64,000 bases of DNA from Escherichia coli (GTDB lineage Bacteria > Pseudomonadota > Gammaproteobacteria > Enterobacterales > Enterobacteriaceae). Where the stretch lies: NCBI RefSeq assembly GCF_003790525.1, contig NZ_CP033635.1; one strand, written 5' to 3'. Both the position numbers and the translations under genes were made by a program. The notes under the pieces are model-generated. The model worked only from the letters and a program-made list of their open reading frames with translations, ran no database searches and was not told where the DNA came from. Positions 24,345-33,750 of the stretch are shown one piece after another (position 1 is the first letter of the stretch; every line of letters starts with the position of its first letter).

Positions 24345-27300
24345 TTAACCGATCGTCATTAAACTGGCGTTACCGCCAGCGGCAGCGGTATTCACACTCA
24401 GCGAACGCTCGATATACAGCCGTTCCAGAAGGATATTGCTTTCGCCACGGGCAAAACCCTGCACCGAAACAATTGCACCATCCCGCGCGGCAACGGCTTC
24501 ACACAATGCGCGAAGCTGATCCGAATCACCGTGGAAGATCACCGCATCAAAGGGTTGAGCGGTTATATTTTCCGCTTTCGCCAGTTGAATACGTTCGCTG
24601 ACTGCCGATGGCAATGCCTTCACTAACTGATGATGCAGCGTGTCATCCGGCCACAGTACCTGGCTGCCCACCGCCAGCACGGCGGCGAGCTGAGTCAGCG
24701 CATCCTGTTCATCATCCGCGATACACAATACGCGCTCACGCGGCAGCAGCGTCCAGGTGTTGCGTTCACCCGTCGGCCCTGGCAGCAATCGTTGTGTTCC
24801 TGCCTGCGCCAGCTCGCCATATTGCGTACATAACGCCTGCAATTCTGGACGGTTTGCCGCCCATTCCCGCAGTGCATTTAGCGGCTGAGTCAATGCGGCT
24901 TTCAACTGCGCATCGACCGGATACTCTGCGTCCTGACGCGCGAGCGTCACTGCCAGCGCACTTTCTGGGCGATTCGCCAGCAGACGGTAGAGATAGAGCG
25001 GACCGCCTGCTTTCGGCCCGGTGCCGGACAACCCTTCGCCGCCGAATGGTTGCACCCCAACCACTGCGCCCACCATATTACGGTTAACGTACAGATTACC
25101 GACATGCGCCGAGCCAGTGACCTGGGCGATGGTTTCATCAATGCGCGTATGGACGCCAAGCGTCAGACCATAACCGGAAGCGTTAATCTGCTCGATCAGC
25201 GCCGGCAGCTGGTTACGGTTGTAACGCACCACATGCAGCACCGGACCAAAGACCTCTTTTTGTAATTCGGCAAAGTCATCCAGTTCGATCAGCGTCGGAG
25301 CGACAAAGGTGCCGCTTTGCCATTCACGGGTATCTTCGCTGTTTTCCCGCACCGCCTGGAACACCTGACGGCCTTTACTACGCATGGTCTGAATATGACG
25401 CTCGATATTGGCTTTCGCTTCGCTATCAATCACCGGACCGATATCGGTGGTCAGGCGACCCGGATTACCCATCCGGCATTCGGCCATTGCGCCGCGCAGC
25501 ATTTTCAGCGTGTGGTCGGCAATCTCATCTTGCAGGCACAGCACGCGCAGTGCCGAACAACGCTGACCTGCACTGTCGAACGCCGAGGCCAGCACATCTA
25601 TTACGACTTGTTCGGTCAGTGCTGAAGAATCGACAATCATCGCGTTCATGCCGCCGGTTTCAGCGATGAGCGGAATAGGGCGACCCTGAGCGTCCAGGCG
25701 GCTGGCGATATTGCGCTGCAGTAACGTAGCGACTTCGGTTGAACCGGTAAACATCACCCCGCGCACGCGATCATCACCCGTCAGTTGCGCGCCCACGGTT
25801 TCACCCCGACCGGGCAGCAATTGCACCACGCCTGGCGGTACACCCGCTTCCAGCAAAATGGCGATCCCTTGCGCGGCAATCAGCGGCGTTTGTTCTGCCG
25901 GTTTTGCCAGCACGCTGTTACCTGCCGCCAGTGCGGCAGCGATCTGTCCGGTGAAAATCGCCAGCGGGAAGTTCCACGGACTGATACATACCACAGGCCC
26001 TAATGGACGGTGGGTTTCGTTAGCGAAATCATCCCGCACCTGTCCGGCATAGTAGTGGAGAAAATCGACCGCTTCGCGCACTTCGGCAATGGCGTTACTG
26101 AAGGTTTTTCCGGCTTCACGCACCAGAATACCAATCAGTTGCTGCATCTGGCTTTCCATTAGCACGGCAGCGCGATGCAAAATTGCCGCGCGTTCAGCCG
26201 GAGGCGTGGCAAACCAGATTGGCGCGTTATTAACCGCACTTTCCAGCGCCTGTTCTACTTCACGCGGCGTGGCTTCACGCACATAGCCCACAATATCTTT
26301 CGGTTCCGCAGGGTTAATAACGGGCGACATCTCACCTGCCGCTACCGGTTGTTCCAGCATTGGCAAGGACTGCCATTTTTGCAGTGCACTATTGAGCAGG
26401 GCTGAAGAGAGCGAGGCCAGACGGTGTTCGTTAGCGAGATCCAGCCCTGCCGAGTTGTCGCGCCCGTGACCGTAAAGATCGCGCGGCAGGGGAATTTTCG
26501 GATGCGGTAATCCAGTTTGCCCTTCCTGTTGTGCCAGTTTTTCTACAGCAGTGACTGGATCGGCGACCAGTTCATCCAGTGGCAAAGAGGTGTCGGCAAT
26601 ACGGTTAACAAACGAGGTGTTAGCACCGTTTTCCAGCAGGCGGCGCACCAGATACGCCAGCAGCGTTTCATGTGTACCGACCGGAGCATAAATACGACAC
26701 GGACGGTTAAGTTTGCCGTCGGCAACTTTCCCGGTGACCTGCTCATACAGTGGTTCGCCCATACCATGCAGGCACTGGAACTCGTACTGACCCGGGTAGT
26801 AGTTTTGACCCGCCAGTTGATAAATCGCTGCCAGCGTATGGGCGTTGTGCGTCGCGAACTGCGGGTAGATTAAATTCGGCACCGCCAGCAGTTTTTTCGC
26901 ACAGGCAAGATAAGAAACGTCGGTATACACCTTGCGGGTATAAACCGGATAACCTTCAAGGCCGTCCATCTGTGCACGCTTGATTTCACTATCCCAGTAC
27001 GCGCCTTTCACCAGGCGAATCATCAGACGGCGACGGCTGCGGGTGGCGAGATCAATCAGGTAATCGATCACCAACGGGCAGCGTTTTTGATAAGCCTGAA
27101 TAACAAAACCGATGCCGTTCCAGCCTGCCAGTTCCGGCTCGAAACAGAGTTTTTCCAGCAGATCGAGGGAGATCTCCAGACGATCGGCCTCTTCGGCATC
27201 GATGTTAATACCAATATCGTACTGACGCGCCAGCAGGGTGAGTGATTTCAGACGTGGGTAAAGCTCTTCCATTACCCGGTCATACTGGGCGCGGCTGTAA

Positions 27301-28307
27301 CGCGGATGCAGCGCCGACAGCTTGATTGAAATGCCTGGACCTTCATAGATGCCACGACCATTGGACGCTTTACCAATGGCGTGAATCGCCTGTTGATAGG
27401 AAACCATATACGCCTGTGCATCTGCGGCAGTCAGCGCGGCTTCGCCCAGCATATCGTAAGAGTAACGGAAACCTTTCTCTTCCAGCTTGCGGGCATTGGC
27501 TAACGCTTCCGCGATGGTTTCGCCAGTGACGAACTGCTCTCCCATCAGGCGCATCGCCATATCCACACCTTTGCGGATCAGCGGTTCACCGCTCTTACCG
27601 ATAATGCGGTTCAGCGAGCGGGAGAGACTGGCTTCGTTATGGGTGGAAACCAGTTTGCCGGTAAACAGCAGCCCCCAGGTGGCGGCATTAACAAACAAAG
27701 ACGGGCTACGACCAATGTGTGACTGCCAGTTACCGTTGCTGATTTTGTCGCGAATTAACGCGTCCCGGGTGGCTTTGTCGGGAATACGCAACAACGCTTC
27801 TGCCAGACACATCAGCGCCACGCCTTCCTGCGATGACAGCGAAAACTCCTGCAATAACCCCTGGACCATACCTGCGCGACCACTGGCATTTTTTTGATTA
27901 CGCAGTTTATCGGCCAGTTGATACGCCAGTTTATGCGCCTGTTCAGCAACTGGTTGCGGCAGGCGGGCTTGTTCCAGCAGCATCGAAACCGCTTCGGTTT
28001 CCGGGCGGCGATAGGCCGCGGTGATCGCGGCGCGGGAAACCGACTGGGGCAAAATTTGCTCGGCAAAGTCGAGGAATGGCTGGTGTGGTTCCTCTGCCGG
28101 AGTCGGTGCTTCATCGCTCTCATTGGCCGCGCCAGAAAGCAGCGCAGGTAGCTCCGGCAGAGTATCGCTGTTTTCCAGTTGTTCAAGATAAGAAAAAATC
28201 GCCTGCTTAATTAACCAGTGTGGCGTGCGATCGATACGTGTCGCGGCAGACTTAATACGCTCACGCGTCGCGTCGTCCAGCTTAACCCCCATGGTGGTGG
28301 TTCCCAT
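24345..28307 (-). CDS. putA: Bifunctional proline dehydrogenase / P5C dehydrogenase and transcriptional repressor PutA
   Basis: ATG at 28305-28307 (MGTTTMGVKLDDATRERIKSAA...), 1320 aa; RHH DNA-binding N-terminus, PRODH and aldehyde dehydrogenase domains. Confidence 0.95.
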   Translation of the reverse strand: MGTTTMGVKLDDATRERIKSAATRIDRTPHWLIKQAIFSYLEQLENSDTLPELPALLSGAANESDEAPTPAEEPHQPFLDFAEQILPQSVSRAAITAAYRRPETEAVSMLLEQARLPQPVAEQAHKLAYQLADKLRNQKNASGRAGMVQGLLQEFSLSSQEGVALMCLAEALLRIPDKATRDALIRDKISNGNWQSHIGRSPSLFVNAATWGLLFTGKLVSTHNEASLSRSLNRIIGKSGEPLIRKGVDMAMRLMGEQFVTGETIAEALANARKLEEKGFRYSYDMLGEAALTAADAQAYMVSYQQAIHAIGKASNGRGIYEGPGISIKLSALHPRYSRAQYDRVMEELYPRLKSLTLLARQYDIGINIDAEEADRLEISLDLLEKLCFEPELAGWNGIGFVIQAYQKRCPLVIDYLIDLATRSRRRLMIRLVKGAYWDSEIKRAQMDGLEGYPVYTRKVYTDVSYLACAKKLLAVPNLIYPQFATHNAHTLAAIYQLAGQNYYPGQYEFQCLHGMGEPLYEQVTGKVADGKLNRPCRIYAPVGTHETLLAYLVRRLLENGANTSFVNRIADTSLPLDELVADPVTAVEKLAQQEGQTGLPHPKIPLPRDLYGHGRDNSAGLDLANEHRLASLSSALLNSALQKWQSLPMLEQPVAAGEMSPVINPAEPKDIVGYVREATPREVEQALESAVNNAPIWFATPPAERAAILHRAAVLMESQMQQLIGILVREAGKTFSNAIAEVREAVDFLHYYAGQVRDDFANETHRPLGPVVCISPWNFPLAIFTGQIAAALAAGNSVLAKPAEQTPLIAAQGIAILLEAGVPPGVVQLLPGRGETVGAQLTGDDRVRGVMFTGSTEVATLLQRNIASRLDAQGRPIPLIAETGGMNAMIVDSSALTEQVVIDVLASAFDSAGQRCSALRVLCLQDEIADHTLKMLRGAMAECRMGNPGRLTTDIGPVIDSEAKANIERHIQTMRSKGRQVFQAVRENSEDTREWQSGTFVAPTLIELDDFAELQKEVFGPVLHVVRYNRNQLPALIEQINASGYGLTLGVHTRIDETIAQVTGSAHVGNLYVNRNMVGAVVGVQPFGGEGLSGTGPKAGGPLYLYRLLANRPESALAVTLARQDAEYPVDAQLKAALTQPLNALREWAANRPELQALCTQYGELAQAGTQRLLPGPTGERNTWTLLPRERVLCIADDEQDALTQLAAVLAVGSQVLWPDDTLHHQLVKALPSAVSERIQLAKAENITAQPFDAVIFHGDSDQLRALCEAVAARDGAIVSVQGFARGESNILLERLYIERSLSVNTAAAGGNASLMTIG

Positions 28308-28729
28308 GCCATTACTCCTGTTGTTCTGAAAGGTGCAACTTAACGTTATCGTGAAATATCCATGATGTTGCAACTTTGTGCAACCATGTTAAATGTGACC
28401 TGCGTAGCAAGCTTAAAAATGAATGAAATGTTAATAAAAGAAATCGATATGACAGGGATTAAAAAAATAACTCAGACTTTTTCTCTGCGGCAGTTAACAT
28501 TTTTGAAAGGTGCAACCGCAAAAAATGTGAGAGAGTGCAACCTGATGAAAAATAGTGTCGCTGAGCACTAAAATTTAATGTAAATGGTGTGTTAAATCGA
28601 TTGTGAATAACCAGCGCTTCCGGCAGGATACGGTCGCCCTGGTAAAACATAAACTCTGTTACCCCGTTCCGGTGGCAGATATAACGGCAAGTTTCGACAT
28701 TGCCGATAATAATTTTTTGGAGACTTTAG
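28308..28729. promoter_or_regulatory. put control region (divergent putA/putP promoters) with multiple PutA operator motifs
   Basis: GTTGCA/TGCAAC motifs at about 28332-28339, 28367-28374, 28378-28385, 28509-28517 and 28545-28552. Confidence 0.7.
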
Positions 28730-30238
<1,509 letters not shown>

Positions 30239-30282
30239 GAGAAGGCGTTTTACCGAAAATTTCACGTCATAACAGGAAGCAG

Positions 30283-30319
30283 GCAGAGGGCAATCAGTGA
30301 TTGCCCTCTGCGTTTTTTC
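30283..30319 (+). terminator. Rho-independent terminator of putP
   Basis: CAGAGGGCAATCA-g-TGATTGCCCTCTG perfect inverted repeat followed by CGTTTTTTCT. Confidence 0.65.
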
Positions 30320-30378
30320 TCAAAATATTTTTACATCTTCTCATCATTATCACTACATTCCACTTGTATTTTTCTTCA

Positions 30379-30397
30379 TCGTAATGATAATCGATAT
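30379..30397. promoter_or_regulatory. Fur-box-like motif upstream of efeU
   Basis: tcGTAATGATAATCGATAT resembles Fur consensus GATAATGATAATCATTATC; efeUOB is iron-regulated. Confidence 0.45.
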
Positions 30398-30457
30398 CAC
30401 TGCGATTTACTTTTCTTTGCATAGATTGACTCAGAAAAACGTTTAAGGGTGGGTGGC

Positions 30458-31288
30458 ATGTTTGTTCCGTTTCTCATTATGTTGCGCGAAGGACTTGAAG
30501 CCGCGCTGATTGTCAGTTTGATTGCCAGCTATCTTAAGCGTACCCAGCGAGGCCGATGGATTGGTGTGATGTGGATTGGCGTGTTGCTTGCCGCTGCGTT
30601 GTGCCTGGGCTTGGGTATCTTCATTAACGAAACCACCGGCGAATTTCCGCAAAAAGAACAGGAACTGTTTGAAGGTATCGTGGCGGTGATCGCCGTGGTG
30701 ATCCTTACCTGGATGGTTTTCTGGATGCGCAAAGTGTCGCGCAACGTCAAAGTACAACTGGAGCAGGCAGTCGACAGCGCATTGCAGCGTGGAAATCATC
30801 ATGGCTGGGCGCTGGTGATGATGGTCTTTTTTGCCGTTGCAAGGGAGGGGCTGGAGTCGGTCTTTTTCCTGCTGGCGGCGTTTCAACAAGATGTCGGGAT
30901 CTGGCCGCCGCTGGGTGCAATGCTCGGTCTTGCTACAGCCGTGGTGCTCGGCTTCCTGCTCTACTGGGGCGGTATTCGCCTCAATCTTGGTGCATTTTTT
31001 AAATGGACCAGCCTGTTTATTCTCTTCGTCGCCGCAGGGCTGGCGGCTGGTGCCATTCGCGCATTTCATGAAGCCGGATTGTGGAACCACTTTCAGGAAA
31101 TCGCCTTCGATATGAGTGCGGTGCTCTCAACTCACTCGCTGTTTGGCACGCTGATGGAAGGGATTTTTGGCTATCAGGAAGCGCCGAGTGTCAGCGAAGT
31201 CGCCGTCTGGTTTATTTATCTCATCCCGGCGCTGGTGGCATTTGTTCTGCCACCACGCGCAGGGGCGACTGCGTCCCGCTCCGTGTAG
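30458..31288 (+). CDS. efeU: Ferrous iron permease EfeU (FTR1 family), apparently intact
   Basis: ATG 30458 (MFVPFLIMLREGLEAALIVSLIASYLKRT...), uninterrupted 276 codons with two REGLE motifs. Confidence 0.85.
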   Translation: MFVPFLIMLREGLEAALIVSLIASYLKRTQRGRWIGVMWIGVLLAAALCLGLGIFINETTGEFPQKEQELFEGIVAVIAVVILTWMVFWMRKVSRNVKVQLEQAVDSALQRGNHHGWALVMMVFFAVAREGLESVFFLLAAFQQDVGIWPPLGAMLGLATAVVLGFLLYWGGIRLNLGAFFKWTSLFILFVAAGLAAGAIRAFHEAGLWNHFQEIAFDMSAVLSTHSLFGTLMEGIFGYQEAPSVSEVAVWFIYLIPALVAFVLPPRAGATASRSV

Positions 31289-31345
31289 CAAATACGACGC
31301 AAACTCTTGCTTAGTTACAACATACTTTAAAGGGATAGTCTCGTC

Positions 31346-32473
31346 ATGACCATTAACTTCCGCCGTAACGCATTGCAGTTGAGCGTGGCTGCGCTGTTCT
31401 CTTCTGCTTTTATGGCTAACGCCGCTGATATTCCGCAAGTCAAAGTGACCGTAACGGATAAGCAGTGCGAACCGATGACCATTACGGTTAACGCCGGGAA
31501 AACACAGTTCATTATTCAGAACCACAGCCAGAAGGCGCTGGAGTGGGAGATCCTGAAAGGCGTGATGGTGGTGGAAGAGCGGGAAAATATCGCCCCTGGC
31601 TTTAGCCAGAAAATGACGGCGAATTTACAGCCTGGCGAATACGATATGACCTGCGGTCTGCTGACTAACCCGAAAGGGAAGTTGATCGTCAAAGGTGAGG
31701 CAACGGCGGATGCGGCGCAAAGTGATGCGCTGTTAAGTCTTGGTGGTGCAATTACTGCATATAAAGCGTATGTCATGGCGGAAACCACGCAGCTGGTGAC
31801 CGACACCAAAGCCTTTACCGACGCGATTAAAGCAGGCGATATCGAAAAAGCGAAAGCACTGTATGCGCCGACGCGCCAGCACTATGAGCGCATTGAACCG
31901 ATTGCTGAACTGTTCTCCGATCTGGATGGCAGCATTGACGCCCGTGAAGATGATTACGAGCAAAAAGCCGCCGATCCAAAATTCACCGGTTTCCACCGTC
32001 TGGAAAAAGCATTGTTTGGCGACAACACCACCAAAGGGATGGATAAGTACGCTGACCAGCTTTATACCGATGTGGTCGATTTGCAAAAACGCATCAGTGA
32101 ACTGGCTTTCCCACCTTCAAAAGTGGTCGGCGGTGCAGCCGGACTGATTGAGGAAGTGGCAGCCAGCAAAATCAGCGGTGAAGAAGATCGCTACAGCCAC
32201 ACCGATCTGTGGGATTTCCAGGCTAACGTTGAAGGCTCGCAGAAAATTGTCGATCTGCTGCGTCCACAACTACAAAAAGCGAATCCGGAACTGCTGGCAA
32301 AAGTCGATGCCAATTTCAAAAAGGTCGATACCATTCTGGCGAAATACCGTACTAAAGACGGTTTTGAAACCTACGACAAATTGACCGATGCTGACCGTAA
32401 TGCGCTGAAAGGGCCGATTACTGCGCTGGCGGAAGATCTGGCGCAACTTCGCGGTGTGCTGGGGCTGGACTAA
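31346..32473 (+). CDS. efeO: Periplasmic iron uptake protein EfeO (cupredoxin / M75 peptidase-like)
   Basis: 375-aa ORF with signal peptide [26 protein letters not shown]. Confidence 0.9.
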
Positions 32474-32478
32474 GCGTT

Positions 32479-33750
32479 ATGCAGTATGAAGATGAAAACG
32501 GCGTGAATGAACCGTCACGCCGACGTTTACTGAAAGGGATTGGTGCGTTGGCGCTGGCGGGAAGTTGTCCGGTCGCTCATGCACAAAAAACGCAAAGTGC
32601 ACCGGGCACGCTTTCACCGGATGCGCGCAGTGAAGCGCAGCCGTTTTATGGCGAACATCAGGCGGGTATTCTGACGCCGCAGCAGGCGGCAATGATGCTG
32701 GTGGCGTTTGATGTGCTTGCCAGCGATAAAACCGATCTTGAACGGTTGTTTCGCTTGTTGACTCAGCGTTTTGCTTTTCTGACTCAGGGCGGAGCGGCAC
32801 CAGAAACGCCAAATCCGCGCCTGCCACCACTCGATTCCGGCATTCTTGGCGGCTACATTGCGTCCGATAATCTCACCATAACGTTATCGGTGGGCCATTC
32901 ATTGTTTGATGAGCGGTTTGGCCTTACACCGCAGATGCCGAAAAAGTTGCAGAAAATGACGCGTTTCCCCAACGACTCGCTGGATGCGGCGTTATGTCAT
33001 GGTGATGTGTTGCTACAAATTTGCGCCAACACCCAGGACACGGTGATCCATGCGCTGCGCGATATCATCAAACACACGCCGGATTTGCTCAGCGTGCGCT
33101 GGAAGCGGGAAGGGTTTATTTCCGATCACGCAGCGCGTAGTAAAGGCAAAGAGACGCCGATAAATTTGCTGGGTTTTAAAGACGGCACAGCCAATCCCGA
33201 TAGCCAGAATGCGAAGTTGATGCAAAAAGTGGTGTGGGTGACGGCAGATCAGCAGGAGCCTGCGTGGACAATCGGTGGCAGCTATCAGGCGGTGCGGTTG
33301 ATTCAGTTTCGGGTGGAGTTTTGGGACAGAACGCCACTGAAAGAACAGCAGACGATTTTTGGTCGCGACAAACAAACTGGTGCGCCGCTGGGCATGCAGC
33401 ACGAGCATGATGTTCCCGATTACGCCAGCGATCCGGAAGGGAAGGTGATCGCGCTGGACAGCCATATTCGGCTGGCGAATCCCCGCACGCCAGAGAGTGA
33501 GTCAAGTCTGATGCTGCGTCGTGGCTACAGTTATTCACTGGGCGTCACCAACTCCGGGCAACTCGATATGGGGCTACTGTTTGTCTGCTACCAACACGAT
33601 CTGGAAAAGGGCTTCCTGACAGTACAAAAAAGGTTGAATGGCGAGGCGCTGGAGGAATATGTCAAACCTATCGGTGGCGGCTATTTCTTTGCGCTGCCGG
33701 GTGTGAAGGACGCGAACGATTATCTCGGAAGCGCATTATTGCGGGTTTAA
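32479..33750 (+). CDS. efeB: Dye-decolorising (DyP-type) peroxidase EfeB, Tat-secreted
   Basis: 423-aa ORF with twin-arginine motif [16 protein letters not shown]. Confidence 0.9.

Follow-up and report, generated by a model that had tools for sequence, protein, structure and literature searches.

The 422-bp spacer between putA and putP, positions 28308-28729 of the 64-kb stretch of Escherichia coli DNA analysed here (the window), is almost certainly the E. coli put control region, and the five GTTGCA hexamers in it are, with the same high confidence, operators of PutA. What is shown here is that the motifs exist and exceed chance, which two genes flank them and which DNA-binding domain PutA has, and that the motif accompanies putA genes encoding a ribbon-helix-helix (RHH) domain and is conserved in position; direct binding, repression and the redox switch are taken from the literature. 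We found nothing that contradicts the PutA-operator explanation.

A PutA operator array at this locus is already known, and biologically the result adds little. Its use is as a clean positive control, in which a characterised operator array was found from raw sequence at exact coordinates and was confirmed both statistically and against 111 further loci. The sequence-only reading that singled out the spacer had proposed it as a good internal control, and it is valid as such. A conserved hairpin in the putP leader is a separate lead and the one item here that is worth bench work.

Five GTTGCA sites on the putA side of the spacer

The gene putA (24345-28307, minus strand) was identified from its open reading frame, NCBIfam and the RefSeq annotation of an identical region. 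It encodes a trifunctional PutA of 1320 amino acid residues (repressor, proline dehydrogenase and P5C dehydrogenase), whose sequence matches the NCBIfam equivalog NF008772 (trifunctional PutA) over its full length, residues 1-1320, with 2658 bits. On the other side, putP (28730-30238, plus strand) encodes a sodium/proline symporter of 502 residues (NCBIfam NF011948, 1143 bits). Both matches are at the equivalog level, and the two genes are transcribed divergently from the spacer. On the minus strand the putA start codon ends at 28307, and putP begins with an ATG at 28730; the boundaries that the sequence-only reading gave for a divergent putA-putP intergenic region were therefore exact.

Of 5426 complete E. 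coli genomes, 5420 contain the spacer with at least 95% identity, and O157:H7 and many other E. coli chromosomes have it 100% identical. It shares 420 of its 422 positions with K-12 MG1655; at 28327 it has T for A and at 28400 C for A, in neither case within a hexamer, and all five GTTGCA sites are identical in K-12, where they occupy 1078909-1078914, 1078942-1078959, 1079086-1079091 and 1079111-1079116. As a side observation, the region downstream of putP (30239-33750) holds plus-strand open reading frames of 279, 375 and 423 aa, the first of them about 210 nt past the putP stop. The O157:H7 record, with its 100% identical spacer, has a hypothetical coding sequence of 447 aa between putP and efeU; the window therefore derives from a strain that lacks this insertion.

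Searching both strands of the spacer for GTTGCA gave six matches: 28334-28339 (minus), 28367-28372 (plus), 28369-28374 (minus), 28379-28384 (minus), 28511-28516 (minus) and 28536-28541 (minus). These correspond to five non-overlapping sites, because the matches starting at 28367 on the plus strand and at 28369 on the minus strand are the two strands of one palindrome, GTTGCAAC. Thus the number of motifs originally noticed, five, was correct. So was their description as partly near-palindromic: besides the palindrome there is an inverted pair within the 19-mer GTTGCAACTTTGTGCAACC, which was quoted in that reading and has an exact match at 28367-28385. The accompanying statement that the motifs occupy the intergenic region needs to be narrowed. 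All of them lie within 28334-28541, the 208 bp nearest putA, and neither strand of the 188 bp adjoining putP contains a GTTGCA.

In the rest of the 64-kb window GTTGCA occurs 0.74 times per kb, which gives an expectation of 0.31 in 422 bp. Under a Poisson model, the probability of at least six matches in the spacer is 1e-6 and that of at least five is 2e-5. Similarly, 20,000 dinucleotide-preserving shuffles of the spacer gave a mean of 0.38 matches; none of them reached six and two reached five. The observed count thus stands against an expectation of 0.3-0.4 by either approach. With the cluster excluded, no other 422-bp stretch of the window has more than a few copies. The window as a whole has 53 copies against 56 expected, hence no overall enrichment, and the enrichment is local to the spacer.

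The put control region of K-12 (putC) is the same locus, with the same PutA DNA-binding domain, the same sites, the same ymdG and the same putP starts. It is reportedly the region in which Nakao et al. (1987-88) and Zhou et al. (2008) described the PutA operators O1-O5. The latter work (J Mol Biol 381:174) is said to have defined five operators, each with a GTTGCA, three of them needed for repression of putA and two for that of putP. As the spacer has exactly five GTTGCA sites, the assignment of the five reported operators to them is dictated by count.

Nearest to putA, 27 nt from its ATG, is the minus-strand site at 28334-28339 (extended aaGTTGCAcc), presumably O5. It lies within a 16-nt direct repeat, TT(C/T)TGAAAGGTGCAAC, the other copy of which is at 28501-28516. 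The palindromic site at 28367-28374, with GTTGCA on both strands, and the minus-strand site at 28379-28384 (extended tgGTTGCAca) are what we take to be O4 and O3, respectively. The minus-strand site at 28511-28516 has the best fit to the published consensus (cgGGTTGCACCt). We assume it to be O2, and the reverse complement of 28503-28523, TTTGCGGTTGCACCTTTCAAA, to be the O2 oligonucleotide crystallised in 2RBF. The last site, at 28536-28541 on the minus strand (agGTTGCAct), would then be O1, centred about 55 nt ahead of the putP transcription start p1. The 8-mer GGTTGCAC is matched at three of the sites (28378-28385, 28510-28517 and 28535-28542), and the 9-mer GGTTGCACC is matched once in the spacer, at 28509-28517.

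PutA and its sites across genomes

Codons 1-52 of putA (28152-28307, minus strand) encode the RHH DNA-binding domain (PutA52). Residues 1-52 of PutA are 100% identical to the RHH domain whose structure was solved alone (PDB 2GPE) and on operator DNA (2RBF), and the next-best structure matches are to the CopG family. The PutA site from 2RBF is given as cGGTTGCACc, attributed to Zhou et al. 2008 (PMC4655474). Published work further shows that PutA represses both putA and putP via operators in the spacer, and that reduction of its flavin by proline makes PutA quit DNA for the membrane (PMC5879082, PMC5293562). The gel shifts in PMC5293562 were run with a put control fragment of 420 bp; for wild-type PutA that paper quotes, from earlier work, a Kd of 45 nM.

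Put together, these data fit the standard model, by which the region most likely works. When proline is scarce, PutA would be cytoplasmic, and its N-terminal RHH dimers would read each GTTGCA by inserting a two-stranded beta-sheet in the major groove, with an extended contact of roughly GGTTGCACC. Occupancy of the sites at 28334, 28367 and 28379, which cover the putative putA promoter and the stretch just past it, would turn putA off, and occupancy of those at 28511 and 28536 would lower putP transcription. When proline is present, its oxidation would reduce the PutA flavin, PutA would move to the membrane and off the DNA, and putA and putP would be derepressed. PutA shares with the RHH repressors Arc, MetJ, CopG, NikR and antitoxins a small dimeric domain whose beta-sheet recognises the major groove, and a set of several short sites distributed over the promoters under control. 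Unlike in those proteins, the RHH domain of PutA is fused to a 1300-residue membrane-binding flavoenzyme.

We scanned one genome per species for a DNA pattern encoding HWLIKQAIF, a sequence conserved in the PutA DNA-binding domain, and obtained 120 loci, among them loci of Enterobacterales, Pseudomonas, Aeromonas and Burkholderiales. All 120 encode an RHH PutA N-terminus, M-x-T-T-(M/L)-G-V-K...RTPHWLIKQAIF, and the DNA-reading strand T-T-(M/L)-G-V-K is kept in 120 of 120. Enrichment was counted in the 111 loci with enough sequence upstream of putA. These upstream regions contain 506 copies of GTTGCA in 49.9 kb (10.1 per kb), compared to 0.62 per kb over 1.03 Mb in the flanks of the same loci, a 16-fold enrichment. 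The minimum per locus is two and the median is five (n = 111). Copies per spacer range from 2 to 8, in both orientations, with the exception of one locus with 15, a tandem hexamer repeat. In Silvimonas terrae, a tandem hexanucleotide repeat, (TGCAAC)x12, is located about 180-250 nt upstream of putA, beyond three ordinary operator sites.

The site logo derived from these loci reads GTTGCA(C/A)C for the Enterobacterales and GGTTGCACC for the remaining loci, Pseudomonas included, in agreement with the published 2RBF consensus cGGTTGCACc. In Pseudomonas (P. putida PutA45, PDB 2JXG-2JXI) the hexamer is the same and its extended consensus, GGTTGCACC, is stronger; there too putA and putP are divergent, with five or six sites in most spacers. 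The layout is a different one, with a tandem direct pair, GGTGCAACCGGGTGCAACC, close to putA, and with an inverted pair and a single site near putP. Copy number and layout of GTTGCA vary by lineage, and the DNA-reading strand of PutA is fixed.

For positional comparison, the spacer of the window was aligned with those of 15 other Enterobacteriaceae genera (16 in total). Salmonella typhimurium, reportedly the classical put control region (Hahn et al. 1988; Ostrovsky de Spicer and Maloy 1993), belongs to a genus outside this sample. In the other Enterobacteriaceae, putA and putP are likewise divergent, with spacers of about 390-480 bp, and the inverted pair GTTGCAACTTTGTGCAAC and two putP-side TGCAAC sites occupy the same aligned positions as in the window. 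All 16 genera have the inverted pair at 28367-28385 unchanged. Positional conservation holds for four of the five sites: those at 28367-28374 and 28379-28384 in 16/16 genera each, and those at 28511-28516 and 28536-28541 in 14/16 each. These four are therefore ancestral within Enterobacteriaceae.

The fifth site, at 28334-28339, is found in the window sequence alone among the 16 genera, and seems to have been gained recently. The corresponding sequence of E. albertii is TATAGC; as the site is unconserved even in this close comparison, comparative support for it is nil, and the case for its function comes entirely from the K-12 experiments. At 28404-28409 the situation is reversed: the window has GTAGCA, and E. 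albertii, Kluyvera and Mangrovibacter carry a GTTGCA at this place. The alignment points to a turnover of weaker operators around a fixed core of four. Both this pattern of four ancestral sites and the lineage-dependent copy number may be unstated in the literature that we reached. Autoregulation by the PutA RHH domain, with which the sequence-only reading had considered the array consistent, is supported by the identity of the domain to 2GPE and 2RBF, the 16-fold enrichment and the positional conservation.

Probable promoters and small reading frames around the sites

A putative putA promoter can be placed at 28353-28381 on the minus strand, with TTGCAC as the -35 element (reverse complement of 28376-28381), a 17-nt spacer and GATATT as the -10 element (reverse complement of 28353-28358). 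It was read by eye, not mapped, and its sole support is conservation: the -10 block, aATATCc, is nearly invariant in the 16 genera. A simple sigma-70 scan returned nothing convincing for putA, and the proposed promoter is under its thresholds. Two operators would lie inside this promoter, the one at 28367 in its spacer and the one at 28379 overlapping the -35 element, and the site at 28334-28339 would fall at about +8 to +13 of the predicted transcript.

For putP, starts have been published at -137 (p1), -95/-94 (p4) and -13/-17 (p5), corresponding to window positions 28593, 28635/28636 and 28717/28713, respectively (PMC2760140, Table 1 and Fig. 8). The leader from the most upstream of these starts therefore covers 28593-28729 on the plus strand. 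The operators at 28511 and 28536 are 50-80 bp upstream of p1, hence upstream of every published putP start, so that simple occlusion of the core promoter is not obviously the mode of putP repression. Upstream of p4 there are two conserved blocks, TTGTGA (28601-28606) and CAGGAT (28624-28629), separated by a 17-nt spacer, and their fit suggests that they are the -35 and -10 elements of p4. A CsrA-type GGA hairpin at 28620-28633 (CCGgcAGGAtaCGG) had also been considered for this region and was dropped, since the published p4 start makes the -35/-10 reading better and simpler; no title or abstract linking putP with CsrA in E. coli was found.

Another feature of the spacer is a composite direct repeat, GTGCAACC-N5-AAATGTGA, at 28378-28398 and 28510-28530. 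Its second element is conserved, at a fixed spacing after the operator at 28379 and likewise on the putP side, and the TGTGA in it resembles a CRP half-site. In the putP-side CRP-like candidate the second half would overlap the operator at 28536-28541. Competition between PutA and an activator at these CRP-like sites is a possibility.

Such features bear on the view that the GTTGCA blocks are mainly promoter elements, or sites of another factor such as CRP, and not PutA operators. The resemblance of TTGCA to the -35 sequence TTGACA, the overlap of one hexamer with the putative putA -35 element (28376-28381) and the presence of AAATGTGA at the same spacing after two operators all speak in its favour. 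However, a spacer has 2 to 8 copies of the motif (15 at one locus), and these are found in either orientation; it tracks RHH-bearing PutA across distant lineages with different promoters, and the flanking G and CC of the logo fit the protein-DNA contacts in 2RBF and not a -35 element. Moreover, in genomic SELEX purified PutA selected this spacer alone from the whole genome, as a single genome-wide peak (PMC8249747). We therefore consider this explanation very improbable.

Even less credence can be given to the idea that the repeats reflect coding constraint. RefSeq/PGAP calls a 69-aa "hypothetical protein", WP_000979516.1, at 28362-28571 on the plus strand in O157:H7 and many other E. coli genomes, and this reading frame covers four of the five sites. 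Unlike the hexamers, its start codon and frame are kept in no other genus, and the hexamers themselves are in both orientations and in different frames. K-12 annotates just the last 8 codons of it, as ymdG (b4737, MKNSVAEH; 28545-28571, plus strand), in identical sequence. The 69-aa frame was rejected as a real gene, and its annotation looks like an over-call. The ymdG frame starts 4 nt past the operator at 28536-28541 and is among the experimentally validated small ORFs (PMC7815308); in the 16-genera alignment it is not conserved outside Escherichia.

Finally, the suggestion that the cluster is a functionless product of chance or of an AT-rich spacer, for which one could cite the unusual composition of the spacer (39% G+C vs 50% for the 64-kb window) and the lack of GTTGCA enrichment across the whole window, is refuted by the shuffles of the spacer itself, by the four sites that hold their position in 16 genera while their surroundings diverge, and by the 16-fold enrichment ahead of putA at 111 loci with an RHH-encoding putA, which include Enterobacterales, Pseudomonas, Aeromonas and Burkholderiales.

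A covarying hairpin in the putP leader

In the spacer alignment we noticed conserved blocks other than the PutA sites, and the arms of one of them change compensatorily between genera. This block forms a hairpin at 28655-28679 on the plus strand, with a stem of 7-9 bp (arms TCTGTTACC and GGTGGCAGA) and the loop C-CGUUCC (CCGTTCC in DNA). The hairpin is located inside the leaders transcribed from p1 and p4 and is separate from the PutA operator array.

The test for covariation used 30 Enterobacterales species, aligned without gaps with CGTTCC as the anchor, and 500 shuffles for comparison. The loop CGUUCC is invariant in all 30 species. Pairing was observed for 78.5% of stem cells, compared to 57.2 +/- 2.0% in the shuffled alignments, none of which was as high (0/500), and 78 cells were changed on both sides, compared to 28.8 +/- 6.2 (0/500). 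The covariation score was 0.627, as opposed to 0.245 for shuffled alignments and 0.12-0.17 when the partner column was slid. RNAalifold retained the inner five pairs, all of them with compensatory changes, and the hairpin of the window has a folding energy of -11.5 kcal/mol (z = -3.2). Its T-G pairs are permitted on the plus strand only, which is the sense of the putP mRNA. These data provide good support for a real conserved RNA structure at 28655-28679.

Searches of 27800-29300 against Rfam 15 gave no match at E <= 1 on either strand. A covariance model built for the hairpin (R1) found it nowhere but in putP leaders of Enterobacterales, with none in Pseudomonas; its next-best match in the window, at 1844-1882 (17 bits), is an unrelated hairpin. 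In contrast to the enterobacterial leader, the putP leader of Pseudomonas is without the CGUUCC hairpin. It has a conserved hairpin of its own (CTGATGGCTTTCCTGGGGAAACATCAG, then TCATAAA), the sequence of which is unrelated to the enterobacterial one.

Term-seq has located an RNA 3' end at K-12 position 1079260, classed as not Rho-dependent (PMC7815308, supplementary file 3). This position corresponds to 28685 in the window, 6 nt past the hairpin stem, and points to premature termination or else to a stable fragment of the leader. The hairpin nevertheless lacks the form of an intrinsic (Rho-independent) terminator: its stem is followed by AUAUAACGG, without a U run, and a terminator scan did not list it. 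An upstream open reading frame with proline codons was considered and rejected. The frame in question, 45 codons from a GTG (28603-28740), reads Pro-Val-Pro across the hairpin loop and overlaps the putP start; it is absent in E. albertii, Pseudocitrobacter, Pantoea and others, and no conserved reading frame across the hairpin was found in the relatives compared.

That the loop sequence is invariant and the stem covaries implies that some partner, protein or RNA, recognises the element. GcvB is a small RNA that controls many amino-acid transporters, and its nucleotides 11-18, CCGGAACG, are the exact complement of the invariant CGUUCCGG (28665-28672 in the window). These nucleotides sit in a predicted GcvB stem, and the energy of the GcvB-leader duplex was no better than that obtained with shuffled leaders (48 of 300 as good). 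Pairing of GcvB with the putP-leader hairpin may thus be regarded as a weak lead. Overall, we propose only tentatively, and with some doubt, that the putP leader carries an undescribed cis-acting regulatory RNA element at 28655-28679; if this is true, putP would have post-transcriptional control on top of repression by PutA.

A second stem-loop, CGGCAAGT...ATTGCCG, is located at 28685-28705 on the plus strand, past the first hairpin and ahead of the ribosome-binding site of putP. It is less conserved: 12 of the 16 Enterobacteriaceae genera have a hairpin of different sequence in the same place.
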